The translations under genes were made by a program, and so were the position numbers. A model generated the notes under the pieces. That model ran no database searches. It was given only the letters and a program-made list of their open reading frames with translations, and was not told the DNA's origin. From Ostreococcus lucimarinus (taxonomy: Eukaryota), in NCBI GenBank assembly GCA_000092065.1, contig CP000594.1: DNA of 64,000 bases; one strand, written 5' to 3'. Shown in pieces: positions 4,490 to 29,400 of this stretch (position 1 is its first letter; every line of letters begins with the position of its first letter).

Positions 4490-4583
4490 TTGAGTTGCGG
4501 CACCCCAACATGATAAAACCGCACATCGACGTCGATGTACCACATGTAAGATTTCTCCAGAACCAATCGTGTGAGTGAAGTGG

Positions 4584-5081: not shown

Positions 5082-5514
5082 TTGTCCTGGTCACCTATCT
5101 ATCCCTAAGAAAATATAGTTGCCAAAAGTGCTCCTCTTGCGGTTTGCAGTCACATTCGAGAGATCATAGGTGCTCGTGTTGCTGCGTGGGGTGCAAGGTC
5201 TGGGATGTAGATATCGAACCGCCTGATTTCACACCTGGACGTTCGTGATCCGACGAGACCTGACGAAATGACGAACTTGTTTTGTCGTCCCCAAATTCGT
5301 CAGCCCGTCGTTCGGTCACACTTTGTGTGTACCAATGATGAAAATGACGAAATGTTAAAATATTTCAATGTTTATTTTTATTTTAGATCTATGAAAAGCA
5401 ACAGTGTAGACCTTTATGAAAACAGTTCGTCATTCGTCATTTCGTCAGGATCCAAACCATGGTCTTTTTGGTGTCTTGTTGAGTCTTCATATTGCAAATG
5501 TACGAATCACAAAA

Positions 5515-5655
5515 TTAGTATGAACACCAGACGACCGCCGGCGCGAGCTCCGTCTCCCCCGTTTACCCATTGTCCTTCAGCCACTCGAAGCACCCGTCGC
5601 GGTCAATTTCCCAATAGACGCCATTCTCGTCCCTAGCTTGCCTCAGGTGGTCCTC
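5515..5655 (-). pseudogene. C-terminal remnant of the primase-helicase (last 46 codons plus stop)
   Basis: Matches 16183..16320 and 44501..44640. It is cut off at the junction with the upstream-module repeat. Confidence 0.7.
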
Positions 5656-5889
5656 TTAATACACCAAAAAGTAAATGCAATTATGGTGTTTCATTATTCC
5701 ATACGAGTACCCCAGAACGACGAGTCGTGACCCATACGGTAAAAATATCACGTCCCGCCGGTCCGGTCCCCATAGTATATAGAATTTATACAATTCAGCC
5801 CGCGTCATTACGGGGGTACAGTAATCTATGTGTCCGACATTAAACTCGATTTTTGCTAGGGTTTAGCGTCCCCGGTGTCCCGCGCGCGC
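5656..5889 (+). promoter_or_regulatory. Conserved upstream module (copy 1). It ends with 'AAACTCGATTTTTGCTAGGGTTTAGCG' about 30 bp before the first ATG.
   Basis: It shares 'catacgagtac..gacgagtcgtgac..tacggtaaaaatatcacgtcccgccggtccggtcccc..atagtatat' and the 27-bp terminal box with 19750..20125 and 36130..36585. It contains a 'gtacagtaatc' half-palindrome. Confidence 0.55.
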
Positions 5890-6366
5890 ATGCGTTGGCG
5901 CCGTCGACACTCGTCGACGCCCCGGCCCGCGGTCGTTCGCGTCCACACGGTTCAAGTAGTGCCCTTGGACGACGAACGTGCGCTTGTGCACCCTTGCGCG
6001 GATGAAGTGCGTTTCCATCGTGCGTCGCCGCCGTTCGGTCCTTTAAGGGCGACCGTAGCGCAACCGGGCGATCTCCGTGCGGACGGCGCGATGCCGGCGT
6101 ACGCATCGCAAGGAGTGCACACCGGGGGCACTGCGCCATTCGCGACGTACCGTGCAGCACAACACGCGTTTGCAACGCCAGACGGCATGCATTGGCGCGG
6201 TGGACGCAGCGTTTCATTGAAAATTGCGCGCAGCACTAGTGGGCAAAGCGGCTCGTTGGCACCCCAACGGGTCTTAAACACAATACTTGTTTTGTTCGGA
6301 TACTCGCCCAGGGATCTAGACACACGTGAGGGTAGTCGAAGGGCTAGCGTCCGGTGCCAAAAGAAC

Positions 6367-9300
6367 ATGCTCTTTGCTACGGCCACGTGGATGCTGCTAT
6401 TGCTCACGTCGTTTGTCGATGGGGCAATAGTAGACCGCGACGCTTTGAAAGTTGCAGTGGACAACTGTTTGGCGGCAAATGCCACTGGTAACTGCGATTG
6501 TAGCAGTGACTCTGTGGACTGCGGTACCGCTGGAAGTCTTCCCATCTCGCAGTGGGATACGAGCCGCGTGAACGATATGAATAGACTATTCAGCAACCAG
6601 GGTTCATTTAACGCGAATATCTCCGCGTGGGACGTGAGCGGCGTGACGGACATGACTCGAATGTTCGAGGGCGCTAATAGTTTCGCTCAGGACATCAGCT
6701 CGTGGAACGTGGTGAACGTCACGAGCATGGACACTATGTTCTATCGCGCGGATGCGTTCAACGCGCCCATCGGCAGTTGGAACACAGACGGCGTGACAAA
6801 CATGTTTCAGATGTTCCACTCAGCACATTTGTTCGATCAACCGATCGGAAGCTGGAACACGGAACGGGTGACGACCATGCAGTGTATGTTCATGTATGCG
6901 CGTGAATTCAATCAGGATATCAGCTCCTGGAACACGGCCAACGTGGTAAATATGTGGGATATGTTTTATAGTGCGGATGCGTTCAACCAGAACATTGGGT
7001 CATGGAACACAGAGGAGGTGACGGATATGAGGTACATGTTTTATAGTGCGGATGCGTTCAACCAGAACATTGGGTCATGGAACACAGAGAAGGTGACGGA
7101 TCTGAGCGGAATGTTTCAGGGCGCAGCGGCGTTCAACCAGGACATTGGCTCATGGAACACAGAGGAGGTGACAGACATGAGCGGAATGTTTCAGGGCGCA
7201 GCGGCGTTCAACCAGGACATTGGTTCATGGACGACGACGTCGGTGAAGAACATGGAGAGCATGTTCGAGGATGCGACGGCGTTCAACCAGAACATTAGCT
7301 CCTGGAACGTCAGTGCCGTCACAGACTTCGATCGGATGTTCTACACAGCGACCGCCTTCAACAAAGGCATAATCACCACGAAAACGACATGGACTGGCGC
7401 CACCGGCGCGTCCGCGACAGACATGTTCTCCGCCGCCACGGCGTGGCTGCAGAGGTATGAGTACACGACGAATCCCAGCGGAAGCGTCGTGAATGGTCCC
7501 GCGTCGGCTTGGAGTGTGAAGAAGTGTTCGTCCAATCAGTACGTTTTGAGCAACACATGCAAGGCGTGTGCCTCTGGCAAATTTCGCAGTGCTGGTGACG
7601 ACCCTGATGGCTCCAATACGGCGTGTACGTACGCGTCGCCGTTTGCTTCAAATACCCAGCTGAAAGACACGATCGAGTCTTCGTACTGCTTGGGAGGCAG
7701 CGACGCCACGGGCGCGAATTGCACGGACGGCAAGGGTATGTATATAGCGCAGTGGGATACGAGCTTGATCACGGATATGAATCACTTGTTCTACAACAAA
7801 ATTTCATTCGACGCCAATATCAGCACGTGGAACACGGCGAAAGTGACAAAAATGGATAGCATGTTTTCTCAAGCACGTGCATTTAACCAGAGGATTAATG
7901 AATGGAATACATCGAGCGTGGTGACAATGGAAGCTATGTTCCGCTACGCCGAGTCCTTTGACCAGCCCATTGGTGAGTGGAATACCGGAAGAGTCACCAA
8001 TATGAAAGACATGTTTTCGCAGGCGTCTGAATTCAATCAGAATATCGGTAATTGGGATACATCGAGTGTGACGACGATGGATACTATGTTTCGCTACACC
8101 GAGTCCTTTAACCAGCCCATTAGTGAGTGGAATACCGGAAGAGTCACCAATATGAAAGACATGTTTTCGCATGCGTACGCATTCAATCATTCAATCGGTG
8201 ACTGGAACACGGGTGCCGTGGAGAATATGGAGCTTATGTTCCAAAATACCGGCGTTTTCAACCAGGACATCAGCAGTTGGAACACGGCGGCGGTGACTCA
8301 GATGGACTCAATGTTTTACGGTGCTTCAGCCTTCAATTATGACATCACTGGTTGGAGTTCAGCAAGCCTTACGTCGTCGACGGACATGTTTCTCTCCGCG
8401 ACGGCTTGGCTGGCGAGGTACAAGAACACCGCCTCCCCAGGTAGCAAAAATGGGCCATCGTCGAACTGGCTCGGTCCCGGTCCGTTCACGACCAAGTCGG
8501 CGTTGGAGACCGCTACATGGAACTGCTTGGCGGGGAGCGCCGATGCCGATGGCAACTGCGACTGTACGACCGTCGATTGTGGCGCGGCGGTGTATGAATC
8601 GATTTCGAACTGGAACACGAGTTTGATCACGGACATGACCGGTTTGTTTGAAGGTAAGTCTTCATTCAACGCGAATATCGGCGGATGGAACACGGGGAGC
8701 GTCACAAACATGCACCAGATGTTTAACGGCGCGACTGCTTTCAACCAAGACATCGGTTCTTGGGATGTCTCGGATGTAGCGGACATGTATCAAATGTTCG
8801 GTAGCGCGTCCTCGTTCAATCAAAACATTGGGTCGTGGAACACAGGCAGTGTGACGGATATGAGCGGTATGTTCATGAATGCATCTGCGTTTAACCAGCC
8901 CGTTGGTGACTGGAACACAGGCAGCGTCGTGGATATGAGCGGCATGTTTGAGAGCGTGTCTGCGTTTAACCAGCCCATTGGTGAGTGGAATACCGGAAGA
9001 GTCACCAATATGAAAGAAATGTTTTCGCAGGCGTCTGAATTCAATCAGAATATCGGTAATTGGGATACATCGAGTGTGACGACGATGGATACTATGTTTC
9101 GCTACACCGAGTCCTTTAACCAGCCCATTAGTGAGTGGAATACCGGAAGAGTCACCAATATGAAAGACATGTTTTCGCATGCGTACGCATTCAATCATTC
9201 AATCGGTGACTGGAACACGGGTGCCGTGGAGAATATGGAGCTTATGTTCCAAAATACCGGCGTTTTCAACCAGGACATCAGCAGTTGGAACACGGCGGCG

Positions 9301-12300
9301 GTGACTCAGATGGACTCAATGTTTTACGGTGCTTCAGCCTTCAATTATGACATCACTGGTTGGAGTTCAGCAAGCCTTACGTCGTCGGCGAGCATGTTTC
9401 TCGACGCGCCGGCTTGGCTGGCGAGGTACAAGAACACCGTCGCCTCTGGTAGCAAAAATGGGCCATCGTCGAACTGGCTCGGTCCCGGTCCGTTCACGAC
9501 CAAGTCGGCGTTGGAGACCGCTACATGGAACTGCTTGGCGGGGAGCGCCGATGCCGATGGCAACTGCGACTGTACGACCGTCGATTGTGGCGCGGCGGTG
9601 TATGAATCGATTTCGAACTGGAACACGAGTTTGATCACGGACATGACCGGTTTGTTTGAAGGTAAGTCTTCATTCAACGCGAATATCGGCGGATGGAACA
9701 CGGGGAGCGTCACAAACATGCACCAGATGTTTAACGGCGCGACTGCTTTCAACCAAGACATCGGTTCTTGGGATGTCTCGGATGTAGCGGACATGTATCA
9801 AATGTTCGGTAGCGCGTCGTCGTTCAATCAAAACATTGGGTCGTGGAACACAGGCAGTGTGACGGATATGAGCGGTATGTTCATGAATGCATCTGCGTTT
9901 AACCAGCCCGTTGGTGACTGGAACACAGGCAGCGTCGTGGATATGAGCGGCATGTTTGAGAGCGTGTCTGCGTTTAACCAGCCCATTGGTGAGTGGAACA
10001 CAGGTAGCGTGGCGGATATGAACGGTATGTTCAGGAGCGCATCCGCGTTTAACGAGCCCGTTGGTGCATGGAACACAGGCAGCGTGACGGATATGAGCGG
10101 CATGTTTGAGAGCGTGTCTGCGTTTAACCAGCCCATTGGTGAGTGGAACACAGGTAGCGTGGCGGATATGAACGGTATGTTCAGGAGCGCATCCGCGTTT
10201 AACCAGCCGATTGGTGAGTGGGCCACAGGAAGCGTGGCGGATATGAGCGGCATGTTTGAGAGTGCATCCGCGTTTAACCAGCCGATTGGTGAGTGGGACA
10301 CAGACAGCGTGACGGATATGAGCAGCATGTTTGAGAGCGCGTCTGAATTCAATTATAACATCACTGATTGGAGTTCAGCTAGTCTCACGACGGACATGTT
10401 TCTCGATGCGACAGCTTGGCTGGGAAGATTTGCACGCAAAGATGGCGAAGACACCACTGATGGCCCACCATCCAAGTGGGGCGAACCGTGTGGCAATGAG
10501 TGGTACGATGCGACCTTTGAGGAGAAGTGTGAGCCAAGAGTGAACGGGATTGAAGTGAAAGGATGCAATTCTACGTGCGGGATAAAAGACAACTGGCGGT
10601 GCGACAATTTCGACTTGCTACGCCCCCCCGGTGATGACTTAGATAGCTACAATTGTACGTGCGACAACCCGGCGGGCACGTACGCATCGCCTGATCTTGA
10701 TTGTGCTCGCACAGATTGCATTTACGGCGAGCGGTGTCTCGCTAACGGCCTAGGCTGTGCGCCCGGTGCCGGTGGAAACGCATGCGACCGGTGTTTGACG
10801 GCCGCTGATATTGCCGAGCTTCCACTCAACGAACGAAGTCTCAGCAAGAATGGCTATTACAAGACTGGGCAGATGTGCACGGCTTGTCCAGAGACATCGG
10901 CTGGTCAACTTTTCGCTGCGGCTGCGGTTGTCGTCGTCCTCGCTTTTTGTGGTTTCAAAGCCTCTCAATTGATGGGCGCTCAAGCGACGAACAATTTGAA
11001 GAAAATTGTCGAGTCGCTGCAGTTCTTCTCTCTTTCGCTCAGTATGAGTATCAAGTGGCCTGGACCCGTACTCAATCTCGGTAAATATTTGGAAGCTTTC
11101 ACGTTCAGTATTGAGTTTCTACGACCCGAATGCGTCGCTACGGGGCTGAATTGGCTCAATATATTTTTGTCCTCAGTGTTTTTCGTTCCCGCTCTCATCT
11201 TCATAATCATCGTCGTGAACAATAGACGGGCGAAGCACCGTTACAAAACAACGGTGCGCGCGATCGACAGTGAACGACACGAGGATGGCGAAACAGTCTA
11301 CTGGATCAAGAAACCAGGTTTCTTGTGGGGTACGCGGAGAGCTTACGAGTCCAAGGGTGGAGATAAGATTGTTCGCGAGTTGCAGCGCCAGTATCGGTTT
11401 CGAGCCGCGCTTCGATCTTTCGGCGTACTGTCGCTGACCGTCCTATACCTTCCCATCGTGCGTATGTGCCTTCAGTCATACGATTGCATAAAGATAGACG
11501 GCGTGGATGGGCTTCGATTGGAGCATGACATAGATATCCTCTGTGAAAGCGAAGGGCACGTGATCATCCAGGCCGCCGCCGCGGTGATGTTGGCCATTGT
11601 CGGTATCGGCATGCCAATTTACGTCATAATGCAAGTTCGTAAGATCCGTTTGAGCGGTAAACTGGATGATCCACAGACTATCGACTCGTATGGTCCGTTC
11701 TACGACGTCTACCGGCGCGAGGAGCTCACACACGATCACAAATTGGAGATTGCGAGCATTCGACAAACCGCGGTCGAGTCGTCCTCATTTCGACGAGGCG
11801 AAGGCACGAGCGACGAACGTCCTTTCGATGCAGCAACTGATGATATTGCAGAAGAAATCGCAAATGAAGCCAGGGTCGATACGGAAGAAGATTCAAGCGA
11901 CGTTGATCGTGTTGACGTCGAGGACGATAGTGATACTCCACCACCTCAGAAAGTTGCATCCGGTCTCGGTAAGCTCGCTCGGGCGTTAACGATGACGAAG
12001 TCTGCTTTAGGCCGGACGACGTCAGCGAAAGCGCGCGAACGGGCACATCGAATGCACTGGAAGGACAGGTTCGCGCTTCACTACCTGGCCGTTGAACTAG
12101 TGCAGAAGAGTTGCGTCATTTTGACGACGTCTCCGCTAGTGGCCGAAACCGCGGTGAGCGGTTGGGCTCTGGTTGTCGTACACTGGTTTACCGGCGCCTT
12201 CGTCTACGTGTGTCAGCCTTGGCGCATCATGACGCTCGGCTTCGGCAAATACAAGGTGCGAAATTGCTTAAACAAAGTCGAGTCCTTGGCTGGATTTTTG

Positions 12301-12597
12301 CAGGGCGTGGGACCGTTCTTGGCGATGATCTTCCCTGTTCAGAGAAACGAGTTGGGCGAGGTGAAGCAAACTGTGACACTCTCAGCCATAACTGTCCTGC
12401 TGACCATCATAATCACCGGGCTGCTTTCTATTCGTATCATTGTTTTCGTCGGCGAACGCGTCGCCGTCAAACGAAAGAAGATGGACATTGACAAGGATCC
12501 CGAGAAATGCATGCAAAATGTTCACAAACAACTGGTCAAGCTCGCAACCAACAGAGCGATTGTGAGCATGTTGCTTTCAAGGCAGATTTCGACATAA
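6367..12597 (+). CDS. Giant DUF285-repeat (BspA-like) cell-surface protein. It has a signal peptide, about 40 DUF285 units, Cys-rich EGF-like spacers and a C-terminal multi-pass TM region.
   Basis: The ORF is open from 5875 (GTG) and the first ATG is at 5890. A clear signal peptide 'MLFATATWMLLLLTSFVDGA' begins at 6367 and was chosen as the start; an upstream start or 5' intron is not excluded. The repeat 'AFNQxIGxWNTxxVTxMxxMF' occurs throughout. At least 7 hydrophobic helices follow aa ~1680 ('AAAAVVVVLAFCGF', 'FFVPALIFIIIVV', 'VIIQAAAAVMLAIVGIGMPIYVI' and others). Confidence 0.6.
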   Translation: MLFATATWMLLLLTSFVDGAIVDRDALKVAVDNCLAANATGNCDCSSDSVDCGTAGSLPISQWDTSRVNDMNRLFSNQGSFNANISAWDVSGVTDMTRMFEGANSFAQDISSWNVVNVTSMDTMFYRADAFNAPIGSWNTDGVTNMFQMFHSAHLFDQPIGSWNTERVTTMQCMFMYAREFNQDISSWNTANVVNMWDMFYSADAFNQNIGSWNTEEVTDMRYMFYSADAFNQNIGSWNTEKVTDLSGMFQGAAAFNQDIGSWNTEEVTDMSGMFQGAAAFNQDIGSWTTTSVKNMESMFEDATAFNQNISSWNVSAVTDFDRMFYTATAFNKGIITTKTTWTGATGASATDMFSAATAWLQRYEYTTNPSGSVVNGPASAWSVKKCSSNQYVLSNTCKACASGKFRSAGDDPDGSNTACTYASPFASNTQLKDTIESSYCLGGSDATGANCTDGKGMYIAQWDTSLITDMNHLFYNKISFDANISTWNTAKVTKMDSMFSQARAFNQRINEWNTSSVVTMEAMFRYAESFDQPIGEWNTGRVTNMKDMFSQASEFNQNIGNWDTSSVTTMDTMFRYTESFNQPISEWNTGRVTNMKDMFSHAYAFNHSIGDWNTGAVENMELMFQNTGVFNQDISSWNTAAVTQMDSMFYGASAFNYDITGWSSASLTSSTDMFLSATAWLARYKNTASPGSKNGPSSNWLGPGPFTTKSALETATWNCLAGSADADGNCDCTTVDCGAAVYESISNWNTSLITDMTGLFEGKSSFNANIGGWNTGSVTNMHQMFNGATAFNQDIGSWDVSDVADMYQMFGSASSFNQNIGSWNTGSVTDMSGMFMNASAFNQPVGDWNTGSVVDMSGMFESVSAFNQPIGEWNTGRVTNMKEMFSQASEFNQNIGNWDTSSVTTMDTMFRYTESFNQPISEWNTGRVTNMKDMFSHAYAFNHSIGDWNTGAVENMELMFQNTGVFNQDISSWNTAAVTQMDSMFYGASAFNYDITGWSSASLTSSASMFLDAPAWLARYKNTVASGSKNGPSSNWLGPGPFTTKSALETATWNCLAGSADADGNCDCTTVDCGAAVYESISNWNTSLITDMTGLFEGKSSFNANIGGWNTGSVTNMHQMFNGATAFNQDIGSWDVSDVADMYQMFGSASSFNQNIGSWNTGSVTDMSGMFMNASAFNQPVGDWNTGSVVDMSGMFESVSAFNQPIGEWNTGSVADMNGMFRSASAFNEPVGAWNTGSVTDMSGMFESVSAFNQPIGEWNTGSVADMNGMFRSASAFNQPIGEWATGSVADMSGMFESASAFNQPIGEWDTDSVTDMSSMFESASEFNYNITDWSSASLTTDMFLDATAWLGRFARKDGEDTTDGPPSKWGEPCGNEWYDATFEEKCEPRVNGIEVKGCNSTCGIKDNWRCDNFDLLRPPGDDLDSYNCTCDNPAGTYASPDLDCARTDCIYGERCLANGLGCAPGAGGNACDRCLTAADIAELPLNERSLSKNGYYKTGQMCTACPETSAGQLFAAAAVVVVLAFCGFKASQLMGAQATNNLKKIVESLQFFSLSLSMSIKWPGPVLNLGKYLEAFTFSIEFLRPECVATGLNWLNIFLSSVFFVPALIFIIIVVNNRRAKHRYKTTVRAIDSERHEDGETVYWIKKPGFLWGTRRAYESKGGDKIVRELQRQYRFRAALRSFGVLSLTVLYLPIVRMCLQSYDCIKIDGVDGLRLEHDIDILCESEGHVIIQAAAAVMLAIVGIGMPIYVIMQVRKIRLSGKLDDPQTIDSYGPFYDVYRREELTHDHKLEIASIRQTAVESSSFRRGEGTSDERPFDAATDDIAEEIANEARVDTEEDSSDVDRVDVEDDSDTPPPQKVASGLGKLARALTMTKSALGRTTSAKARERAHRMHWKDRFALHYLAVELVQKSCVILTTSPLVAETAVSGWALVVVHWFTGAFVYVCQPWRIMTLGFGKYKVRNCLNKVESLAGFLQGVGPFLAMIFPVQRNELGEVKQTVTLSAITVLLTIIITGLLSIRIIVFVGERVAVKRKKMDIDKDPEKCMQNVHKQLVKLATNRAIVSMLLSRQIST
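7962..9977 (+). repeat. Near-perfect 2 x 1008-bp in-frame tandem duplication inside the DUF285 gene (336 aa each)
   Basis: ORF-track artefacts 8321..8626 and 9329..9634 are identical in length and about 98% identical. The nucleotide text 7962–8969 repeats at 8970–9977. Smaller 126/252-bp DUF285 unit repeats follow to about 10330. Confidence 0.85.
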
Positions 12598-14912: not shown

Positions 14913-15261
14913 ATTTATAAAGTTTACATGTGACGTTTTTTTTCAAAAATGGAAAAAAAAGTGACGGAGAGAAAGTTCCTCACAGGACCTCCAACCACTA
15001 AACCCATAACCGGTCACTCTTCCTCGCCCCGTTCTTTGATACACGTTCGCCCCACGACGGTTCGACCTGAAATTTTTTTCGGTTTGGCTTCGAACCCGAG
15101 CTTGGTCAGCGCGCGTCCGATGAGCATCTTGCTCACGGTGCAGCCGTTAAAAATATCAACTTTTTTGTTTCAGTTGGGGCACCCCAACATGATAAAACGC
15201 TCATCGACGTTGATGTACCGCATGTACGATTTCTTCAGAACCAATCGTTCGAGTGAAGTGG

Positions 15262-15759
15262 TCAAACCAAGCCACGCAACTCATCTACCGTAAATTGATA
15301 CTTGTCGAGACTGCGCTTCGAAGGCAGCGTGCCGCGCGCTCGAGCATTCTTGAGACACGTCTTACGCAGTATTCTTTTCGCGTGCTGCTTGTAATAATTG
15401 AGTTGTCTGTAGTTACCATCGCCGCCGTCCCGCTTCGGCGTATATTGAGCTCTGCTGTAGGCCAGACTCTCGTCCACGTTCTCGTGGCACGCGTGTTTCC
15501 GACTGCGTCCAGGAACTCGGGAGTTGAATACGCCGTCGCGCTTCTCTCTCATGTATGCACTTTTACGTTGACGGAGCTCTCCAGCTGGAATGTCCTTTTC
15601 GAGAACTCTCACGTCCGCGTCGCCAAACGTGAAGATTGGATGCCGTGCGTATTTATGCGAGGCAAGGCGCGCTCTGAGCGAACCTGTCGTCGATCCGATG
15701 TACGTTTTGTCACATTTCGCATTATCGCTAAACATTTCGTACACGCATCCCGACGGCAT
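15262..15759 (-). CDS. GIY-YIG family nuclease, 165 aa
   Basis: Same motifs as 4584..5081. Confidence 0.8.
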   Translation of the reverse strand: MPSGCVYEMFSDNAKCDKTYIGSTTGSLRARLASHKYARHPIFTFGDADVRVLEKDIPAGELRQRKSAYMREKRDGVFNSRVPGRSRKHACHENVDESLAYSRAQYTPKRDGGDGNYRQLNYYKQHAKRILRKTCLKNARARGTLPSKRSLDKYQFTVDELRGLV

Positions 15760-15926
15760 TTGTCCTGGTTACCTGTCTATCCCTAAGAAAATATTGTTGT
15801 CAAAAGTCCTCCTGCTGCGGTTTGCAGTCGCATTCGAGAGACCGTATCGCTGCGTGGGCTGCAAGGTCTGGGATGTAGATATCGAACCGCCCGATTTCAC
15901 ACCTGGACGTTCGTGATCCGTCGAGA

Positions 15927-16117
15927 CCTGACGAAATGACGAACTTGTTTTGTCGTCCCGAAATTCGTCAGCCCGTCGTTCGGTCACACTTTGTGTGTAC
16001 CAATGATGAAAATGACGAAATGTTAAAATATTTTAATGTTTATTTTTATTTTAGATCTACGACAAGCAACAGTGTAGACCTTTATGAAAACAGTTCGTCA
16101 TTCGTCATTTCGTCAGG
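15927..16117. promoter_or_regulatory. Intra-element inverted repeat ('cctgacgaaatgacgaac' and 'gttcgtcattcgtcatttcgtcagg') around an AT-rich spacer, between the primase-helicase and GIY-YIG genes
   Basis: The arms are reverse complements at 15927..15944 and 16093..16117, with one extra heptamer in the right arm. The spacer contains 'atgatgaaaatgacgaaatgttaaaatattttaatgtttatttttattttag'. It is conserved in all three copies (5268–5460 and 44254–44440). Confidence 0.6.
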
Positions 16118-16182
16118 ATCCAAACCATGGTCTTTTCGGTGTCTTGTTGAGTCTTCATATTGCAAATGTACGAATCACAAAA

Positions 16183-18393
16183 TTAGTATGAACACCAGAC
16201 GACCGCCGGCGCGAGCTCCGTCTCCCCCGTGTACCCATTGTTCTTCAGCCACTCGAAGCACCCGTCGCGGTCAATTTCCCAATAGACGCCATTCTCGTCC
16301 CTACCTTGCCTCAGGTGGTCCTCGCGCATTGGGATCCTGTGGCCCTTTTCCTTCTTGAAGAAGTCCTTGAGCTTATTGCCGACCCTGGTCGCGCTATCTT
16401 GACCGCGCGTAGCCGCTGGCAACCACGTCTGGTATTCGATGAAGATGTCACTGTTGCGGATTTTATTTCCAACCCACTTCTCAGGGAATTCAACAGTGAC
16501 GCAATGCTCAAACCATCGAGTGAACTTGGGCATGCAGCCACGCTTCATTTCCGAATACGCGTCGGTCGTAGGTCTGTCTTTCACGTAGTCAAAAGTCGAT
16601 AGGTCGAGCCCCATGAGGTGGTCGTAGATCGCCCTCAAGTTCCTCAGATCCTTGATGTACACGTCGCGGAATTCCTTCAAGAATCCAGTCTGGTCGTTCA
16701 AGTGCGTGAGCAGTGGCTCCATAACGACGAACCGACGATCACTCATTTCCAGAAAAACGGGGTAGTCGTCGTTCGAGAAAAATAGGAACCCAACCAGATT
16801 CATGATGACGTACAGCTGCACGTGCTTCGGGTTGATTGTGAAACTCGTGTCCGTGAGCATCGATTTCAGCAACTTTCTATACATTTTCATGATGCACTCA
16901 TCTGCTTCGTTCAACGCGAGACACTTTTTGCCTTCAATCATGTTCGCATGCGTCCCAAATATGTCCTTTTTCGGATCAGCCGTCTCATGAAACGTCTTGC
17001 CCATGAGCGCATGAAGCAGGTGCAGGAAAGTGCCCTTGCCGGTACCTTGGACTCCTCGAAACACGAGCGACGTGATCGGCTTCTCTTCGGGTCTCTGGAA
17101 GAGACACGCGAACCAATTCAAAGCGTACTCGAGCGCATTTTCTGAACCGCCACATAGCACCAGGAGGAGCTCGAGGAAAGGCTTTACGTCGCCCTCTTTG
17201 CCCAGTTCACTGGGGATGCCTTCGACCGGATAGCCTCGCCACAGATTGTACGTCTTGTTGCTGCAGTTTTTCGGGACGACATCGAGGGTATCGTACACCC
17301 GTTTATTGTCGTCGTCGAGCCACTTTTCGATGAACCCGTTCTTCTTGCCTTTCCTCAAGACACCGTTCTCATCGACAAAGGAGAGTTCTCGATAGCGCCT
17401 CACCAAAGCGGCCTCGCTGAACTTGGTAATGTCCCCGGTGGTTCCATAACAGCTATCGTCGCAGAAGAGGTCCTTGGTTAAGATCTTTGCGACGTGCTTC
17501 TCGAACTCACGGCGGACCTCGATGTAGCCCGCAGACGTGCCCTCTTTGATTTCGTTCTGCTCCTTTTCGGTGATACCGGTCACCAAACACCCAACCTCAA
17601 AGCGAAACTGTCTGGGCTTGCAGTTGCCATGGTTTTTCACGGTGAGCACGCCGAGACCGACCTCGGCGACGTAAAAGTGATTCCCACCGCCCCTTCCATT
17701 GCCTTCGTGGAAGCCCCCACAGCAAGGACATTGGCCCACAGTGGTGCCTCGCTGTGGGCGACATTGGTCGCATTCAAAATCATACGATGTCGCTCCACTG
17801 AGCCAATGTATGCCCGTGAACCCCATTTCCTCGAGCAAAGGTGTCACAGATGCTTGCGTAAAGCTGCACTCCGTGTCCGCGCGTTCGACCTTGTGACCGA
17901 CTTTGCCATCAAGGAAACTGTACAAATCGTTGGGCATCGGTGGTAAATTGTTGATGTCGCCTCGGAGTAGCTCGTAGCCCGGGGCATCGGCACCGACCAC
18001 GTAGTTACCCGTCGTACGGATATCGACGAACCCTTCGATGCCCACCGTGCCTTTCCAATCGCCGAATCGTTCTTCGTCCCATGCGAAGTACGTGTGGTAC
18101 CCGCCTGATCGCGTTTTGACGATGTACGCGCCTTCCCCGCCAACCTTGCGCGTCAACATTTCTTCCGTCAGTTCAAACTCGCACTTGCCACCGTAACAAT
18201 CCCAGTCGATGACGAGGACACGGTTCGGTCGCCCTGTCAGCACGCCGTACATTTCTCCTGGGATGACTTTCTGCGTATTCTGTTCATAGTTTGCTTCATC
18301 GAGGAACCCTCTGCCGCATGTTGGCTCCTTGTTCTGGTCGAGTGGGATCAGATGCATGCCGTTCGTAAATTCTCTGGCGTCCATATATATCAC
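16183..18393 (-). CDS. Primase-polymerase (AEP/Prim-Pol) fused to a D5-like SF3 helicase, 736 aa
   Basis: AEP motifs are present: 'VLVIDWDCY' (DxD), 'SGGYHTYF' (motif II His) and 'VDIRTTGNYVVGADAPGY' (motif III). A Cys4 Zn-ribbon 'CDQC...CPCCGGFHEG' follows. Walker A is 'GVQGTGKGTFLHLL', Walker B is 'KKCLALNEADE', and SF3 motif C is 'FFSND'. Confidence 0.85.
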   Translation of the reverse strand: MIYMDAREFTNGMHLIPLDQNKEPTCGRGFLDEANYEQNTQKVIPGEMYGVLTGRPNRVLVIDWDCYGGKCEFELTEEMLTRKVGGEGAYIVKTRSGGYHTYFAWDEERFGDWKGTVGIEGFVDIRTTGNYVVGADAPGYELLRGDINNLPPMPNDLYSFLDGKVGHKVERADTECSFTQASVTPLLEEMGFTGIHWLSGATSYDFECDQCRPQRGTTVGQCPCCGGFHEGNGRGGGNHFYVAEVGLGVLTVKNHGNCKPRQFRFEVGCLVTGITEKEQNEIKEGTSAGYIEVRREFEKHVAKILTKDLFCDDSCYGTTGDITKFSEAALVRRYRELSFVDENGVLRKGKKNGFIEKWLDDDNKRVYDTLDVVPKNCSNKTYNLWRGYPVEGIPSELGKEGDVKPFLELLLVLCGGSENALEYALNWFACLFQRPEEKPITSLVFRGVQGTGKGTFLHLLHALMGKTFHETADPKKDIFGTHANMIEGKKCLALNEADECIMKMYRKLLKSMLTDTSFTINPKHVQLYVIMNLVGFLFFSNDDYPVFLEMSDRRFVVMEPLLTHLNDQTGFLKEFRDVYIKDLRNLRAIYDHLMGLDLSTFDYVKDRPTTDAYSEMKRGCMPKFTRWFEHCVTVEFPEKWVGNKIRNSDIFIEYQTWLPAATRGQDSATRVGNKLKDFFKKEKGHRIPMREDHLRQGRDENGVYWEIDRDGCFEWLKNNGYTGETELAPAVVWCSY

Positions 18394-18695
18394 ATAAGAA
18401 AAGAATTCTTTAAGCCGTGTTTTTCCTGGTCACATCGGCGCGATGACTGATTTTCAAGTTTTTCAACAGCCTGGAAAAGCACGCCAGCGCGCCCCACTGG
18501 TCAACGTTTTGCCACTTTTTCGACGAGATCGGGGTACTGCAAAGCACACGGCGAAGACCCGAGAGATCAGCAGATCGACGAACTCCGCAGTGAGCTCAGT
18601 GACATCGTGTCAAGACTGGAGGCGGTGGAGAGCGCCTAATCATCGTTTTTCTATATCGCGCCATTCGTGGACAACAAAATATACGTCCACATATA

Positions 18696-20437: not shown

Positions 20438-23400
20438 TCAACGGCTTGATTCCAAGGTCGAGCCGTAATCATACGCTCGCGAGCCTACGAACACCGCATC
20501 GCACTCGTTTATTGGCGCGCGTCGCGACTTACGACGTACAATCGCCACAAACGCAACAAAGGTAAACATCGCAAGGTACAGAGTTAATGTGAAGGGTCGA
20601 GGCGCCCCCAATCTGGCTCTCGACTGTTGCACGGCGTTACATTCGCACAGTTCCAATGCCTTGCTTCGTTGCTCGGCATTTTTCCAGTTACGCGTGAAGC
20701 TGACATTAAAGTTTGCGACTCCACGAAACATTTCGTCGACGTTCGCGTCAGCGCTCAATACCCACGAATTCAGATCTTGATTGAAACTTTTGGCGAAAGC
20801 AAACATCCGATGAAAGCTCTTGACGTTGGAGACGTTCCAATCGCTTAGGTTTTGATTGAAATTTCGATTGTACGCGAACATTTCTGACATGTCCGTAGCA
20901 GACGCCGTGTTCCACGCACTGATGATGGTCGCCGCCGTCGATCCAACGCCATTCAGACTATCGTAATGTGTTTGAAATAGACTTCTGAAATTCCTCACCT
21001 CACTTGTATCCACCATGTTTAGAGGCCCAAATCTACAACAGTAGCTGTACTTCGAGAAATTCGACCCCATGCAGTTACTCCGAGCTGACTCTTGGCTTCG
21101 GCAGGAGCGTATCACTTGGTATAAACTCGAACGATCGCCACGAAGTGGTGATAAACCTTGCGCCGTACCAGAATACGCAAAGAGATCTATAAACTGTTGA
21201 TGATCGCTTCGGTGAGTATTGACTTGTTTTTCCTTGATATTTTCGGCAAATGACGGCGAACGATAGCTTGGATTCAGAAAGTAGGTGGAATGGAACATCC
21301 CGTAAGCGGTCGTAACCGAGGAAACATCCCACGTCCACTTTCGCAAATCGCGCGAGAATGCGCGCGCGCCATTGAACATGTATTGCATGTTCTGAACTTT
21401 TTTCACGTTCCATGACGACAAATCCTGATCAAAACTTGTCGCATATTGAAACATTTTCACCATCGTCCCGACTTGCGCGACATTCCAAGATCCGATTGAC
21501 GCGTTGAAGTCTCTCCGATTTTGGAAAAGTTCATTCATGTTCGTTACCCTACTGACATCCCACGTCTCCATGGTCCCAAACTGTAAGTCTCGACACATAC
21601 CTCCGACGGGATCGACTTCCAAACATTTATCTATGATATCATCGATGTTGTCGTTATCGATGTGCTCCATAACTTTGGTTTCAGCGATTTTCGGTTTCCA
21701 ATTGCACGGGGGGCCATGTCTCATGTTCGACTTGCTGATTGAGACGAGTTTGAAATCGAACGAGCTCCGTCTGCCTCTTGCATAGTGACTGAACCATTTG
21801 GTAACGCGAACTTCGTCCTTCAATGCGTACTTCACCTTCCACGCGGCGGCGTTCAGGAACATGTCACCCACGATTGGCTGCAGAACGGTCGATTGCGACG
21901 TTGCGTGCTGGGCGAGACAAACGTACTCGCCTCGAACGGCAGCTTCGCCGCGGCCCCAATTTGTAATGTCGGCATCAAACATCCAAGCGTCGTCAAACAT
22001 TTTATAAAAGTCTGTGACTGATCTCACGTTCCAATCCCCCAAGTCTCCGTTAAATTTATAGGCGTTGGAAAACATCTGGTTCATGTCTTCAACCTGGGCG
22101 ACGTTCCAAAGTTTCAAAGAGCCCCGGAATCGACGCGCGCCGTAGAACATGCGGAACATACTCGTGACTGAAGCAACGTTCCAGTTTTCGATATTGCCAT
22201 TGAAGTCGCGTGCGCCCGAGAAGGCTTCAGACATATCGAACACACCTGAAGTATTCCAGGTTGACATCGCGCCATACTTGGAGTCGACGCAAGCGCCATC
22301 AGTGGGATGTGTCTCCAAACATTTGCCGACGGCGTACAAGAAATTACCTTGATGTACTTCGGCGAAGGTTGATGAATTCGTTGAGTTCTTGCTCGTTGTA
22401 GGCACGGTGCACTTAGCTGGCGAAGCACGATTTGGTTTCTTCGCCAACCCAACACAGTCGACATCACCATATATGGCGTGGCGACCATATTTCCCGTCTT
22501 TGTCGCGCCCCCACTTGTAGCCAATTTTCGTATTGTATTCCAGGCAAGTGCGCGGCTTGCAGGTCCACTTCGACACGGGACCAGAGAGAGACCACGTTCT
22601 TCTACGTTCGTGGCCTTCGCGCGTGCATGCCTCAAGCCAGGCCGTCGCAAGACCAAACATATTGGCACTCCCCAACCTGTCCAGACTCGCGGAATCCCAC
22701 TTGGAGATATCTTGCGCAAACTTCGACGCGCCGTAAAACATCCCCTCCATATTGTACACGTTGCGTACGTCCCAATTGCCAATGTCTTGATTGAAACTCG
22801 AAGCGCCTTGAAACATGCGCAACATAAATGTTACGGAACTCACATCCCAAGCAGATATATCGCCATCGAACTGGTCTCTGCCCTTAAATGCCTCGCGCAT
22901 GTCGGTGACTCGGCTTACGTCCCAGCCAGACATACATCCGTGTCTAAATCCAGAGCAGTCTCCGTACTTTGGGTCTTCACTCAAGCATTCTTCAATCGCA
23001 TCATAGAAGACAGCATTTTCAATGTTTACGTGCTTTCGTTTCCAAACAATCGGTGGTCCATCACTTTTCCCTCCGACGGCGAGAGGATCGCGATAAAACT
23101 CCATTTGAAACTCCGTGATGCCGTCGAACATCTTCGTCGAAACTTCCAACGAAGCCGTCGACCAAGAAGTGACATCAGGAAAGTCTGGGACCACTACTCT
23201 GGAAAACATCTCGCGCATGTTTTTCACTTTTCGCACATTCCAGTGCGATATCTCTGATGGGATCTTTCCAAAGCGAACGCCCTTGAACATCATTTCCATA
23301 CTTGTAGCCGAACTCGTGTCCCATGAAGCAAATCCTGAAGGCAAGCGGGTAGTGCGATATCGCGATGAAAACATGCTCCTAAAGTTCGTTATACCAATGG

Positions 23401-26400
23401 TGCGCATGTTGGATACATCGCAGGTCGTCGACACGGGTGAATTCAAACCAGAAAACATGGAATCAGCATCGACGTTTGATCCGAAACTCCATGAGATGTT
23501 GACATCCGTGCACTCAGAACCCTTCATCATTGCCTTGATATCATTGGCAGAGTCTAGTTTCCACGCGCTCGCTTGACGAAGAATGGGTGGTTTTGAGAAA
23601 GCAAACGCGGATTGCATCTTCTGAACTCGTTTAGGATCCCATTTGCCAAGACCGTCGATGGCGTCGTGACCAATCCGAGCAAATGCAAGCTCCATGCTCT
23701 TCACATTCCTCACGTCCCAAGAACCAATATCGCCGATGCGTCCTTGATTTGTCATTTTGAAGAATATTCCGTCCATGTTGGTGACCGAGGAGACATCCCA
23801 ATGTTTGAACATATTGTGCCAATCACGCCCCAGACCACTGAAGGTGAACCGCATGCTCCGCACGCTACTTACATTCCACGCACCCAAGTTACCAAAAGTC
23901 GCTCCCGGTAGAATGACCACAGTGCGTGGAACATCTAATCTGAAACGCGTTTCGGAATGCGAAGATGCCTTCCATTCTCCCGTATCATTGAAATACCGTT
24001 CTCCATATCTGAAAATGTGGTAATTATAGCGCTGCATGAACATTGCATCCATGTTCACGACTGAACTCGTGTTCCACTGTGACAAGTCGCCCACGTCGCC
24101 TTCAAAATCCTCAAACATCGCACCCATGTCCGTCACGGAGCTCACGTCCCATCTCGACAGGTCACGTGAAAAGTTGGGCGCGTCCTTGTATGCAGCACCA
24201 AACTCTCCAGGGCTTGCTTGAAAGAATTTCCATCGCAAACATACGTAGCCGAACGTTCGGTAATGTCCCGGAAACGCGGCTTGGTCAAACTGAAAGTGGT
24301 TAACAGTACCAATTTTGAACGCGTACGACATGTCGGTTACTCGCGAGACATCCCATTCTGACATCGGCCCGTATCTCAATTCGCATGTCGTTAAATTCTT
24401 TCTGCATGCGATGATCGCGGTATAGAAATCATCATCTGTACGAGTCAAGTTGAGTGGTTTGGATACCAGAGCGCTCAAAAGTCGGCGTCCAAGTGGAAGC
24501 CGAACAGGATCGTCGATACTTTTACCCAAACGTGCGCTGACGCTCATCGCCGGCGACTTGGCGGAGGTGAGCTCCTCTTCGAGCCTTCGCAGCTTGGCCC
24601 GCAAACCTACAAGCCCTCGGTTCCTCGGATTGCGAGCCTCGATCCGCGCAATTTTTGTGCGGAGCTTTGTCATTTCCGGCGTCGGGCTCGGTGGCGGCGG
24701 GCTCGGACTTGTCGACGGCGTGTCGCCGAAGAGCTCCTCTTCGAGCCTTCGCAGCTTGGCCCGCAAACCTACAAGCCCTCGGTTCCTCGGATTGCGAGCC
24801 TCGATCCGCGCAATTTTTGTGCGAAGCTTTGTCATTTCCGGCGTCGGGCTCGGTGGCGGCGGGCTCGGACTTGTCGACGGCGTGTCGCCGAAGAGCTCCT
24901 CTTCGAGCCTTCGCAGCTTGGCCCGCAAACCTACAAGCCCTCGGTTCCTCGGATTGCGAGCCTCGATCCGCGCAATTTTTGTGCGGAGGTTTGTCATTTC
25001 CGGCGTCGGGCTCGGTGGCGGCGGGCTCGGACTTGGTGTAGTCGTCAGATAATCGATCGATGAGCTCGGCGATTGACTCGGACTCGGCGAGCTCTTCTCT
25101 TCGTCAGCGTCCTCCTCTTCGTCAGCATGTTCGACTTCGTCTTTGTCTGCCTCTTCGTCCTCCTCTTCGTCTGCATTGTAAGGCGATGGACTCGGACTCG
25201 GCGAGCTCTTCTCTTCGTCAGCGTCCTCCTCTTCGTCAGCATGTTCGACTTCGTCTTTGTCTGCCTCTTCGTCCTCCTCTTCGTCTGCATTGTAAGGCGA
25301 TGGACTCGGACTCGGCGAGCTCTTCTCTTCGTCAGCGTCCTCCTCTTCGTCAGCATCTTCGACTTCGTCTTTGTCTGCCTCTTCGTCCTCCTCTTCATCT
25401 GCATTGTAAGGCGATGGACTCGGACTCGGCGAGCTCTTCTCTTCGTCAGCGTCCTCCTCTTCGTCAGCATGTTCGACTTCGTCTTTGTCTGCCTCTTCGT
25501 CCTCCTCTTCGTCAGCATTGTAAGGCGATGGACTCGGACTCGGCGAGCTCTTCTCTTCGTCAGCGTCCTCCTCTTCGTCAGCATGTTCGACTTCGTCTTT
25601 GTCTACCTCTTCGTCCTCCTCTTCGTCAGCATTGTAAGGCGATGGACTCGGACTCGGCGCACTTGCTTGTGCGTCGATACCTGTATATTCTGGTTCATCG
25701 GATGGCGTGTAGTTCTGAAATGGTTCATACGAATCTGTGGTTGTATTCGTTTTACTCGACGCAGCACGATGACCGATGGTATCCGCGTCGACCTCAAAAC
25801 TAAAATTGCCATTAAGACGGAAACTGGACTCCTTAGAGTCAAGAATTGCTTGGTCGTCGTCACTCACGGATACTTTATCGAGAATTTTGAGCGAATGTAT
25901 CGTTGGTAGCGGAGCACCTAGTACACTGCGGCGTACGTCATGAAGACGATCGCGAGTGGACAGCAAACGACGGTGACTTGGGCTCGTGGCAGTACACATC
26001 TTGAACAGTTTCTCGTCGTGCAATGACGAATATAGTACCTTTTTGCTTCGGGCGAGCACATCAAAGCTTGAAGTAAGTAGCGCGTCTAAATGACTCGGTA
26101 TACCAACGCCCCTCACGGACGTTAACAATTCAAACGAAGAAGCTCGTGGCGGTAAACTTTTCAGCTTTTCACGCCTCGCCCACGGGAGAGGCTTGGCAAG
26201 GTCTACCATTTCTTCCTCACCGTCTTCATTTTCGCATTTCCCATCGTCGTCGTAGACGCACATTTGACAGGTTGTCTCGTTGATGCTTGCTACATACTTG
26301 AGCGGTAGTTCGGGCAGTACAATATTCTGTAAAAAGCCAGTCACGTTTCCCACGATACTCAAACCCTGCTCTGAATCGGGATATTTCCCCCAGAAATTGA

Positions 26401-29400
26401 GCACCGGTTTGACGTGAAGATCCAGAAGGGTCCCGAATCGACTCTTCACATCACGCGCACCGTGGAAATTACTCTTTGATCGGTTCACCATGGCGTACAA
26501 AGGCCGAAGCGCATCTGTTGGCTCGACAAGTCGAGTTTCACATTCACCCCATGCCGCGCGAATCAAATCTTCGTACACATACGTCACATCCGATGTGTTG
26601 AACCATTGGCGTTTGCAATTATGATTCAGCGTGTGCAGCATCCATTTTCGCGCTTCGATATCGCAGAACGGCCGAGTAACTTGAATGACATCCTCCATGA
26701 GAATTTTGTGTATCTCTGGGTCCTCTTTGCATTTTAATGTCATAGATACTGAGCGTATCATCTTGTAGAATGTGCTCGGGTAATACATCGCGTGTGGGCG
26801 AAATACGGCGTACACACGCTTGATGAGGGTTTGATTCGTGATTGACGCCACGTCGATGTGGTTAATGAGCGTCTCCCAAGCCTCGATGTTGTGTGGATTC
26901 GATTCTAACGCTGAGAGTAAAATCGCACCGACGCGATCGACAACTTGAGCGCCAGCATCCATGTACACGTTCTGGAACAAAAGCATCGCCAAGCGCGTCT
27001 CAACGTACGAATCCAACCCTTTGCTTACCGCTCTTGAAAGTGCACGGACATGGTCGACGGAAACGATGGCATTCTTCTTCACACCTGGCGCGTTACGATG
27101 TTCCAAAATACTCAACGTCGTTCTCGCAAACGTCGAGTTGGTGGGCCAATGCAGTGGTACCGTACGCCACAAGCGCGAGAGTTCATCAAATTTAAAGCTA
27201 ATACCTCCAGGAATGGCTCCCCTCTTTTTGGAAACTTTCGTCGGGATCCCGAGACATGTTTGCATACCGATGGACAGATAAGCGATCATCGCGGCGTCAC
27301 CGCCGTCTTGAGCGATCCGTGGAAGAGAATTCGGGTGCCAGTTTGACGCCTTGCATAGAGTTTCCGCGCGTTCGGTGACGTTTGCGTGATTCAACCTCAA
27401 CCAAGTTGTATTGAGATTCCTTCTGCTGGCAATGTGCATGCATTCACTCGTTGGAAAGTGCGCACCAGCGTGCATGGCTACGACTGGCCACGGAATTCGA
27501 CCAAAATTCATCGCTCCGTTGACGTTTGCATTCAACGTGCTGTGCATGTAGTGAATTGCCTGGAGCGGACTCGGATTCAATTCTCGACTTCCTGGCATGG
27601 CCAATGTCCCATTTATGAGCTTCTTCCTGATTTCACAGACATCGCCGACTTCTTCATCCCGAGACTGATCCAAAAGCGTTGAAGTAGAGTCTGCGATGAA
27701 ATTCATATGACGATAATTGAAAGCTGTCGCAAGGATAGCATCGGATATGTTCGCGGCATCACCTCTAAAATAATTTGCCAAATATCGCACGTGATCCAAC
27801 GCTTTCATGTGCGTCGGCATCGTTAGACTATAAAGTGCTTTTCGAAACGAAACGCCTTGGCTTAACTTGGTGTGTTCTATCCATTCCCAAATAGGGTCGC
27901 TCTGCGGTATTCTCGTCAGCCGCTTGCTGAGACGCTCGTTGGATTCGAGAACTTGTTTTGAAAGCGCCTCACTCCAAGCACCCTTTGCATTTTGAACAGC
28001 AATCAAGAGCTCGTCTTGTGGAAACGCTGTGAGGAAACCACGACGCATAAATGTGTGCTCAGCAGAAATGTCCGAACGTGATAGAGAGGACAAATCAAAT
28101 TGAAGATGATGAATGAGCCGACACGTACCCGCGGCCGCAAACCCAATGAAGACGAATCCTGGGCACTTGGGCGTGTTCATACACAGAGAAGAGCACACAT
28201 CGACGGACACAGACACCGGCGACACTGGATAACTCGTCATCGTCATTTGCGGGAGGAGAACAAAATGAGTTGCAGCCGCTCGTCGCGCTGTGGTGTTCCA
28301 TGCGTGCGGTAAATCCATGATCGGTGTTGACCCTGAGACGCTGATTCTCGGCCGCGAGCCTTTAAACAGATTTGAGGAGCACCCTGTCTGTTGTTCCGAG
28401 GGTTTTGTCACGGGGTCGCAGACGACATCGCAATGCGCGTCTTCGTCATCCCTTCGAACACACTCTACGTCACGAATACGGATGCCGTTGATGCACGCGC
28501 CCCACGTAGTTTTCACGCGCCAGGACGCGCCTACACATCTGGGAATCTGAACATCGCAAGCGCCAGTTTCACCGCGTGTCCAACCATTCAAGCAGGTACA
28601 CTTGTAGTCGTAAGTCCAAGGTTTCGTGTCGTGATAATGTTTCTCACATGCGCCATTCGCGCACGACGTTGCGCCTCTTCTGGTTAAAGAGCAAGCTTGA
28701 GGAGGACACTCTTCACGCGTGTTGCAACTCCGAATACTTTCTGGCCTCGCGAGGGGACATAGAGCGCTTCTGGCGAGAGTCCCATTGGCATACGTACACG
28801 ATAACGATCTGACTTGAAAGGGCCGAGCGTCGTAGTCCAAAGTAGCACACTGTGCGCTGCACTCGCCATATGGCATACTGATCCAGTCAGCGTCGTCTCG
28901 TGGAGGCGGCGCGTAACATTCACGTTCGCGAAAATCTGTCATGATTACCCCGTCAGGTCGAGGGACAAAGCAACATCCATGATCTTCGCATACCAAAGCA
29001 CGAACTTCAGGGCTCGTGGAGCCCCGTCGATCATCGCTCTCGTAGCCAGCACACACCATTCTTCCGGAGTCTTGTCTACACTGCGCATCGCAATGGAAAT
29101 GATTACAGAATTCCTTTTCAGTAGGCTTTTCTGCGTGCGTACAGTGATCATCGGGCAGCGTTATATTTGTGCCTCTTTCGTCTTCGTGCGAGCACCAGAC
29201 CCTACGAATGCGCACTCCACCACCACACGATTTGGAACAAGAGGTAAAAGGGGAGGATTTCCAACGCACGAATTTGAGCTTTGTGAAGAAGCTTGACTGG
29301 ACGGAACTCACCACGAATTCGCGTAGGCCGTCGATCGTGACTGGGTGTTCGTACTCGACATTCGTGTACAACGTTGATCCAGATTCGCTCTCAATCGGCT

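Follow-up and report, generated by a model that had tools for sequence, protein, structure and literature searches.

What is the function of the 191-bp block (positions 15927-16117) that follows a primase-helicase gene in Ostreococcus lucimarinus CCE9901, a green picoalga? The window analyzed here, a 64-kb stretch of its nuclear DNA, contains three copies of a repeated unit (about 3.4-3.7 kb by self-comparison) that encodes a 736-aa replication protein, in which a primase-polymerase part (Prim-Pol) of the archaeo-eukaryotic primase (AEP) type is combined with a superfamily 3 (SF3) helicase. The block, hereafter the module, consists of short repeats in opposing orientations around an AT-rich centre, and lies between the stop codon of this open reading frame (ORF) and the start of a GIY-YIG-like ORF. 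An earlier note on the sequence had offered two roles for it, a replication origin and an internal promoter. In our analysis it is probable, though by no means certain, that the module is a cis-acting iteron replication origin for a self-loading initiator-helicase, as in the Staphylococcus aureus pathogenicity islands (SaPI), P4 and pRN1.

The module is bounded by a long inverted repeat. The sequence CCTGACGAAATGACGAAC occupies positions 15927-15944 of the plus strand, and its reverse complement is found, with one mismatch, at 16100-16117; the second arm is equally readable as 16093-16117 with a 7-nt duplication, ATTCGTC. The repeat search gives a perfect 17-nt inverted repeat (15927-15943/16101-16117) with 157 nt between the arms. 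The arm pattern CCTGACGAAATGACGAAC occurs six times in the window, that is, in two arms of each of the three copies, against zero expected from shuffled sequences. Within the 191 bp, beginning 66 nt past the helicase stop codon, there are seven exact copies of the heptamer TGACGAA (expectation for the entire window, both strands, 16.5), and two degenerate copies, TGATGAA and GGACGAC (see the table for positions). The end iterons are arranged as three facing two. In particular, three minus-strand iterons stand on the helicase side of the core, the plus-strand TGATGAA and TGACGAA are nearest to it on the other side, and two further plus-strand iterons, forming the distal arm, lie beyond this pair.

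The core itself (16020-16059) has 10% G+C, and nowhere in the 64 kb outside the three module cores does a 40-nt window contain five or fewer G+C. Two boxes outside the iterons are conserved as well. Each locus has a single box 1, some 100 nt past the helicase stop codon; in L012, one of the related loci described below, it is instead in the second of two tandem modules. Within box 2, the portion GTCACACTT (minus strand: AAGTGTGAC) does not vary between lineages, module 1 of L012 included. The conserved inverted repeat and the AT-rich core that the earlier note had described for all copies are borne out, and so are the further iterons that it mentioned. The secondary-structure prediction that it had proposed shows that a single strand of the module folds far better than shuffled sequences (-36 kcal/mol, z = -5.1).

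As the three window copies are about 97% identical, they carry little information on constraint and more copies were needed. We therefore considered nine copies at this level of identity, adding six metagenomic copies to the three of the window. Nucleotide diversity is 0.0145 in the module, 0.0152 in positions 1 and 2 of helicase codons, 0.051 in position 3, and 0.0495 in the non-coding stretch between the outer arm and the GIY-YIG start. The module thus matches codon positions 1 and 2, and its diversity is 3.5 times below that of position 3. It has eight variable sites, none of them within the iterons. Judging by these values, the module is under purifying constraint, and the alignment check that the earlier note had proposed comes out on the side of constraint.

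Relatives of the unit were collected by a protein search and one metagenome scan, which gave about 80 loci (numbered with L) with protein identities from 98% down to 28%; more look-ups placed some of them on long contigs. In relatives with 81-84% identity (L001, L002, L009, L116, L118) a homologous module follows the helicase stop codon and shares the boxes ATAAAGGTCTACACT and AAGTGTGAC. In L118 (3001-5180) a frameshift has probably broken up the helicase, which is present as two ORFs (538 and 188 aa), but the module downstream of it is identical to those of L001 and L116. For the whole set, an iteron cluster was defined as a 7-mer not of low complexity that occurs at least four times in the 300 nt directly downstream of the helicase gene. 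Such clusters were found in 18 of 45 distinct downstream regions, compared to none of 175 coding control windows, and in 17 of the 45 regions both orientations of the word are represented at least twice.

The words themselves differ between lineages. TGACGAA of the window corresponds to TGATGAA in L001, GGTGGTG in L012 and L003, TGTAGGACA (with 22-nt arms) in L019, ACTCTACAC and CAAGTG (in three tandem modules) in L020, CACTCTA in L024, TATACAC in L025, CTCTCC in L035, CCCTACAC in L040 and L042, and GGAGG in L026, L036 and L039. Positionally homologous modules with different words extend down to approximately 33% protein identity. Past the helicase stop codon, distant lineages have the same layout as the window: short words in tandem come first, then an AT-rich stretch, then the inverted form of these words. 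A hairpin with an A/T stem and a third set of words often come next.

Among close lineages, the outer arms have changed jointly at 4 of 17 positions, keeping 97% complementarity, while slid controls give one such pair at slide +1 and none at five other offsets. Moreover, the change is not restricted to the arms: TGACGAA occupies seven of eight sites in the window and TGATGAA six of eight in L001, internal and direct copies being shifted likewise. Concerted change in both direct and inverted copies argues for recognition by a protein rather than for base pairing alone. Modular exchange is seen in P0004, the protein of L003 and L012, whose identity to the window protein is approximately 80% in aa 1-300 but approximately 40% in aa 301-736, and which is, by this pattern, recombinant. 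It carries the GGTGGTG module, and the coincidence of a foreign C-terminal 60% with a foreign iteron suggests that the helicase/C-terminal half and the iterons travel together. In L012 (2381-2830) the GGTGGTG module is followed by a second, orphan module of the TGAYGAA type, and in L020 (2854-3370) the ACTCTACAC module occurs twice and is followed by a CAAGTG module. Lineage words and P0004 together point, as a correlation, to iteron words specific to the cognate initiator.

The replication protein has the features expected from such an initiator. It matches DUF5906, the D5-like SF3 helicase domain (2e-14), and PHROG families of the category "DNA primase", while the Pfam Prim-Pol domain PF09250 is recorded for the relatives P0002-P0010. 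The family profile matches the helicase region of NrS-1 in PDB, and NCBIfam adds a weak match, 23 bits and thus under the cutoff, to the P4-family primase C-terminal domain. Foldseek matches of the AlphaFold2 model (mean predicted local distance difference test score 71.5) are the NrS-1 helicase region, poxvirus D5/E5, SaPI PriRep1 and the SaPI5 primase-helicase (7pds, 7ola; E about 1e-8 for the PriRep1 and SaPI5 structures), PrimPol of African swine fever virus, and the prim-pol domain of pRN1 ORF904 (1ro0, 7.8e-6), with sequence identity to the SaPI structures of just 9-15%. The C-terminal domain is predicted to have a winged-helix fold, and residues 651-700, the most variable segment of the protein among close relatives, fall within it. 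No exact database record of the 736-aa protein was found, source annotations name no member of the family, and a scan of IMG/VR proteins gave one distant match (25% identity).

Linkage of the module to the helicase gene, lineage-specific words, constraint and the predicted winged helix all support an origin served by a primase-helicase, as the earlier note had suspected. We infer that the protein binds the iterons and that DNA synthesis starts at the module, and propose that the adjacent Prim-Pol/SF3-helicase/winged-helix gene is the only replication gene of what would be a small selfish replicon. The C-terminal winged helix would recognize the TGACGAA iterons, and, with opposed iterons flanking the AT-rich core, helicase rings would assemble on both sides of it in opposite orientations. 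The core with its 10% G+C would melt, the Prim-Pol would prime the exposed strands, and host polymerases would take over. The single-strand folding of the module is compatible with a contribution of a stem-loop, by analogy with pRN1.

Several observations weigh against an origin. The elements are chromosomal, and a helicase-loading origin in a eukaryotic chromosome would need silencing; no circular overlaps or terminal repeats, terminal inverted repeats included, were found at contig ends. Among more distant relatives, approximately 60% of the distinct downstream regions lack an obvious iteron cluster by the criterion used. In L030 and L045 the module is upstream of a block comprised of an unknown ORF, GIY-YIG and the helicase. 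The closest lineages differ by only C/T at one iteron position and by flanking bases, and only across larger distances is it clear that specificity has changed. Finally, lineage-specific iterons would fit an autoregulatory operator too.

L030 and L045 also have a second array (CACGAG, CACGAA or CACGGG, about eight copies) between the module and the first gene of the block (L045 930-1060, L030 400-620), which may be regulatory. Combined with the permuted gene order in the window, the position of the module in these two loci hints at a circular or tandem ancestral form of the element.

The operator just mentioned is one version of a more general alternative, that the module is a transcriptional control region, with the iterons serving repression or termination by the own protein, or with the core carrying the poly(A) or terminator of the helicase gene and the promoter of the GIY-YIG gene. 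The block is intergenic and AT-rich, it precedes the GIY-YIG start by 168 nt in the window lineage, and the modules of L030 and L045 are upstream of genes. That the GIY-YIG start is a neighbour of the spacer is correct as to position; the ORF has no Pfam match of its own and owes its name to a BLASTP match (E=6e-7) to a protein of L002 that itself matches Pfam PF01541 at 6e-7. However, in L001, L002, L116 and L118 there is no GIY-YIG downstream, and the module is kept where two ORFs converge with their 3' ends, leaving it no gene to drive. Furthermore, blastn homology of L001, L002 and L012 to the window stops at the outer arm (position 15929), short of the GIY-YIG cassette, and in at least ten other lineages GIY-YIG homologues are directly upstream of the helicase. 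Because of these three facts, the conserved role of the module is not that of a dedicated GIY-YIG promoter, and the internal promoter offered by the earlier note does not hold as the core role. As a candidate in its own right, the dedicated promoter was rejected, since the module is not constantly upstream of GIY-YIG and is kept where the next gene is the convergent small ORF; a secondary promoter role may exist in the window lineage. Origin and autoregulation often coexist in iteron replicons, which makes transcriptional control a partly compatible rival, and inverted iteron sets around an AT-rich core are the layout of a helicase-loading origin and not of a simple operator (PMC9371898). Transcriptional control in place of replication is therefore an unlikely explanation.

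The outer edge of the module may instead be read as a trace of recombination, the module being a terminus, a site of excision or integration, or a target beside which the GIY-YIG/HNH cassette has been inserted, with no replication starting there. The outer arm is the exact end of inter-lineage homology, the GIY-YIG cassette starts just past it, inside a small ORF, the tandem modules with different words in L012 and L020 suggest recombination at or near modules, and elsewhere the copies have ragged edges of the kind left by gene conversion. Still, domain searches of the ORFs detected no integrase or transposase in the element, there is one module per unit rather than one per end, and the arms are not accompanied by target-site duplications. 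GIY-YIG homing endonucleases recognize a long target of their own and not heptamer arrays, and an origin explains the AT-rich centre, the opposed iterons and the winged-helix helicase more simply, so we consider a recombination or homing site quite unlikely. A structured nucleic acid, be it a stem in the 3' untranslated region of the helicase transcript, or a single-strand stem-loop or cruciform acting by pairing alone, would agree with the folding energy, with the paired changes in the 97% complementary arms and with the origin of pRN1, a 100-nt stem-loop downstream of a prim-pol-helicase gene (PMC4234260). But pairing does not require the shift of direct tandem and internal copies that accompanies the change of the arms, and the arms are far apart; moreover, a search of 2 kb against Rfam 15 found no family at the gathering score (the sole match, U8, has 25.9 bits compared to the required 41, E = 0.04), and a known RNA family was thus rejected. 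A stem-loop within an origin would be no true rival at all, and pairing alone is very unlikely to be the whole function. Alternatively, a miniature inverted-repeat transposable element (MITE) could have inserted into the spacer and been copied with the element afterwards, as the 17-18-nt terminal inverted repeats around an AT-rich unit of about 190 bp might suggest. This reading is barely credible and was rejected: all three window copies are at the same position of the element with no target-site duplication, no solo copies were found in the window or in 118 loci, where box 1 is always downstream of the helicase gene, and positionally homologous modules have different words in distant lineages. 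The 27 matches to box 1 in IMG/VR all lack an iteron context and are attributable to chance; no connection with known viral contigs was found.

The preferred reading, an iteron origin, has to be seen in the context of the repeated units. Their order on the minus strand is the 736-aa ORF, the module, and the GIY-YIG-like ORF, the last being outside the conserved unit of helicase and module. In L001 and L002 the module is followed by a small convergent ORF that encodes a transmembrane segment and a Cys-rich tail (...DVEL..PDFT..R and stop). The window retains a remnant of this ORF, whose stop codon is 8 nt from the distal arm, the GIY-YIG cassette having taken the place of the rest; the tail is present once more beyond the cassette (43240-43440, plus strand). 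The arrangement looks like an invasion by a free-standing homing-endonuclease gene. Upstream of the helicase, L002 has an HNH endonuclease ORF (698-943, minus strand) and a GIY-YIG ORF (85-663, plus strand), and thus the units collect two kinds of homing-type nucleases.

In copy A, a 3' fragment (the module and GIY-YIG together with the final 140 bp of the helicase) is joined through 1.3 kb of unrelated DNA to the inverted 5' half of another helicase copy. The same junction is present in the metagenomic contigs L007, which has a full-length copy where copy A has the shortened first one, and L014, which starts within the helicase gene. The 5' boundaries of the copies (46876, 47074, 47116, 47292) are ragged, unlike those of a fixed-end transposon. 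A giant intron-less ORF adjoins every copy; the encoded proteins have DUF285/BspA-like repeats, TSP1, Tectonin and discoidin domains, with internal tandem repeats of 75, 114 and 162 nt, and look like surface or adhesin proteins. ORFs of the DUF285 type also flank helicase relatives in L026, L027, L036, L046, L059-L062, L082 and L083. Save for a RING finger and weak noise matches, nothing usable came from searches of neighbouring unknown ORFs with Pfam, PHROG, PADLOC and NCBIfam, or of the conserved flanking ORF clusters of related loci with Pfam alone.

Several ORFs of the window agree exactly with CCE9901 proteins encoded on a chromosome of 708,927 bp. The G+C content is about 50% in the first 50 kb and higher in the remainder. 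In particular, the part with elements and giant ORFs (1-50000) has approximately 48-55%, whereas the part with housekeeping genes (51000-64000; RbfA-domain protein, ABC-F, MIF4G/MA3) reaches 60-74%, and thus the elements sit in a low-GC island. TTTAGGG telomere repeats are found at the end of or within the loci L002, L008, L029, L046 and L082, about 580 bp past the helicase stop codon in the first three and about 2.5 kb upstream of the helicase in the other two; a stretch in L070 is interstitial. In four long contigs (L001, L116, L117, L118) the element is 6-73 kb from the contig end. The telomere repeats are evidence, at the level of sequence, that the hosts of these relatives are eukaryotic, and the distances suggest a subtelomeric preference of the elements, which assembly breaks at repeats could inflate.

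Table. Features of the repeated units, of the module of copy B and of related loci. Positions are those of the window unless a locus is named.
Feature	Coordinates	Strand	Remarks
Copy A	4422-5657 and inverted helicase 5' half 1667-3095		composite, shortened, rearranged
Copy B	15148-18558	-	window repeat unit
Copy C	43410-47116	-	window repeat unit; helicase 44501-46711 (-)
Module of copy A	5259-5449		arm pattern present
Module of copy C	44245-44435		arm pattern present
Replication protein, copy B	16183-18393	-	736 aa: Prim-Pol (AEP), Zn-finger-like Cys cluster, SF3/D5-like helicase (DUF5906), predicted C-terminal winged helix (aa ~600-720)
Helicase-proximal arm	16093-16117	-	three tandem TGACGAA (16094-16100, 16101-16107, 16109-16115); invariant in the nine ~97% copies
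Conserved box 1	16071-16085	-	minus-strand reading ATAAAGGTCTACACT; no difference between the window, L001 and L002, and a single substitution in module 2 of L012
AT-rich core, candidate DNA-unwinding element	16009-16062		includes the 14-nt palindrome TTAAAATATTTTAA (16023-16036); AT-rich centre also found in modules of distant lineages
Internal plus-strand iterons	16004-16019	+	TGATGAA 16004-16010, TGACGAA 16013-16019
Conserved box 2	15982-16001		GGTCACACTTTGTGTGTACC, near-palindromic
Internal minus-strand iterons	15952-15970	-	exact TGACGAA 15964-15970; degenerate GGACGAC 15952-15958
Distal arm	15927-15944	+	two tandem TGACGAA (15929-15935, 15937-15943); outer edge of the inter-lineage conserved unit
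Small convergent ORF remnant	15590-15919	+	tail ...RCVGCKVWDVDIEPPDFTPGRS and stop matches the transmembrane/Cys-rich ORF after the module in L001 and L002
GIY-YIG-like ORF, copy B	15262-15759	-	165 aa; cassette outside the conserved helicase and module unit
GIY-YIG-like ORF, copy C	43266-44075		269 aa
Giant ORF	5875-12597	+	2240 aa
Giant ORF	20438-35908	-	5156 aa
Giant ORF	36505-42996	+	2163 aa
Small convergent ORF, L001	8462-8680	-	
Small convergent ORF, L002	~3566-3790	-	
TTTAGGG repeats	L002 3889-3951; L008 4189-4251; L029 1193-1234; L046 4-101; L082 5-95; L070 4442-4476		

A literature search returned no description of the element or the module in Ostreococcus or other Mamiellales, which is not proof of absence. 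As a cis element the module belongs to a well-known type, but its presence in multi-copy units in eukaryotic nuclear chromosomes, often near telomeres and beside giant surface-protein genes, is unusual. Eukaryotic chromosomal origins are normally defined by the host origin recognition complex (ORC) and not by element-specific iterons. If the origin reading is true, an initiator-origin pair of the plasmid or satellite type resides inside the nuclear chromosomes of a highly abundant marine picoalga. The helicase and the module could then underpin an episomal vector for Ostreococcus, and lineage-specific iterons with swapped C-terminal halves would be a natural system for studying the evolution of initiator specificity. 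Repeats beside giant surface-protein genes may also feed regional hypervariability or virus-host interplay. It is a doubtful but conceivable extension that the units are a eukaryotic counterpart of bacterial satellite islands and iteron plasmids, that is, minimal nuclear replicons of Mamiellales that would be silent in subtelomeric regions rich in surface proteins and could fire from their own origin without host ORC. Such a family would pair a Prim-Pol-helicase-winged-helix initiator with an iteron origin of its own and carry homing-endonuclease cassettes; it could fire as episomes or by local over-replication, possibly on prasinovirus infection, and lineages would exchange the specificities of initiator and origin in the form of cassettes.

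Known systems resemble the algal unit to different degrees. Yeast subtelomeric Y' elements are likewise repeated units with a helicase gene and a replication origin, but this origin is an autonomously replicating sequence of the host ORC without element-specific iterons, the helicase is not of the SF3 type and there is no primase, so the analogy is one of setting only. The core origins of SV40 and other polyomaviruses and of papillomaviruses are similar in layout, since their SF3 initiators, large T antigen and E1, bind inverted short words beside an AT-rich tract and assemble as a head-to-head double hexamer in eukaryotic nuclear replicons. However, the origin-binding domains of large T and E1 have a fold other than the winged helix, and these encapsidated viruses encode no primase. 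None of these initiators is among the 50 Foldseek matches listed, and no homology test was aimed at them.

P4 needs, in addition to its origin, a second repeat region (crr) several kb away, whereas no second site was found for the algal element. In the alpha protein of P4, a primase and an SF3 helicase are accompanied by a C-terminal winged helix, through which the protein binds repeated octamers at ori (PMC4234260). As in the algal protein, with its predicted winged helix, one polypeptide thus provides primase, helicase and origin-binding domain, but the primase of alpha is a bacterial Toprim primase and not an AEP (PMC4234260). ORF904 of the Sulfolobus plasmid pRN1 shares with the algal protein both the AEP prim-pol and the SF3 helicase, along with the C-terminal winged helix, which is a prediction in the algal case, and its origin is, like the candidate origin of the alga, 3' of the gene. 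In particular, replication of pRN1 requires 166 bp downstream of orf904, and this cis element can form a long stem-loop of about 100 nt without iteron structure (PMC4234260). The algal block, in contrast, is built of iterons around an AT-rich core rather than of an iteron-free stem-loop, and pRN1 is a free archaeal plasmid, while the algal element is a eukaryotic chromosomal repeat.

A close parallel is provided by SaPI and other phage-inducible chromosomal islands (PICI), although their hosts are bacteria and not a eukaryotic alga, sequence identity to the SaPI structures is low, and the algal copies are chromosomal repeats, often near telomeres. Neither integrase, packaging nor phage-interference genes were seen in the algal element, and no helper virus is known for it. 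A SaPI origin consists of 6-12 iterons immediately downstream of rep, with an AT-rich centre and at least two iterons per side in opposite directions; Rep binds the iterons by a C-terminal winged helix, and in SaPI5 primase and helicase are fused (PMC9371898). The window block agrees with this description in the cluster of iterons past the initiator ORF, in the AT-rich centre with at least two opposed iterons on each side, and in the predicted winged helix of the initiator. As in the case of SaPI and PICI, the candidate origin directly follows the rep-like ORF and its iterons are split by an AT-rich centre; specificity differs between islands, and the iteron words differ between the lineages compared here.

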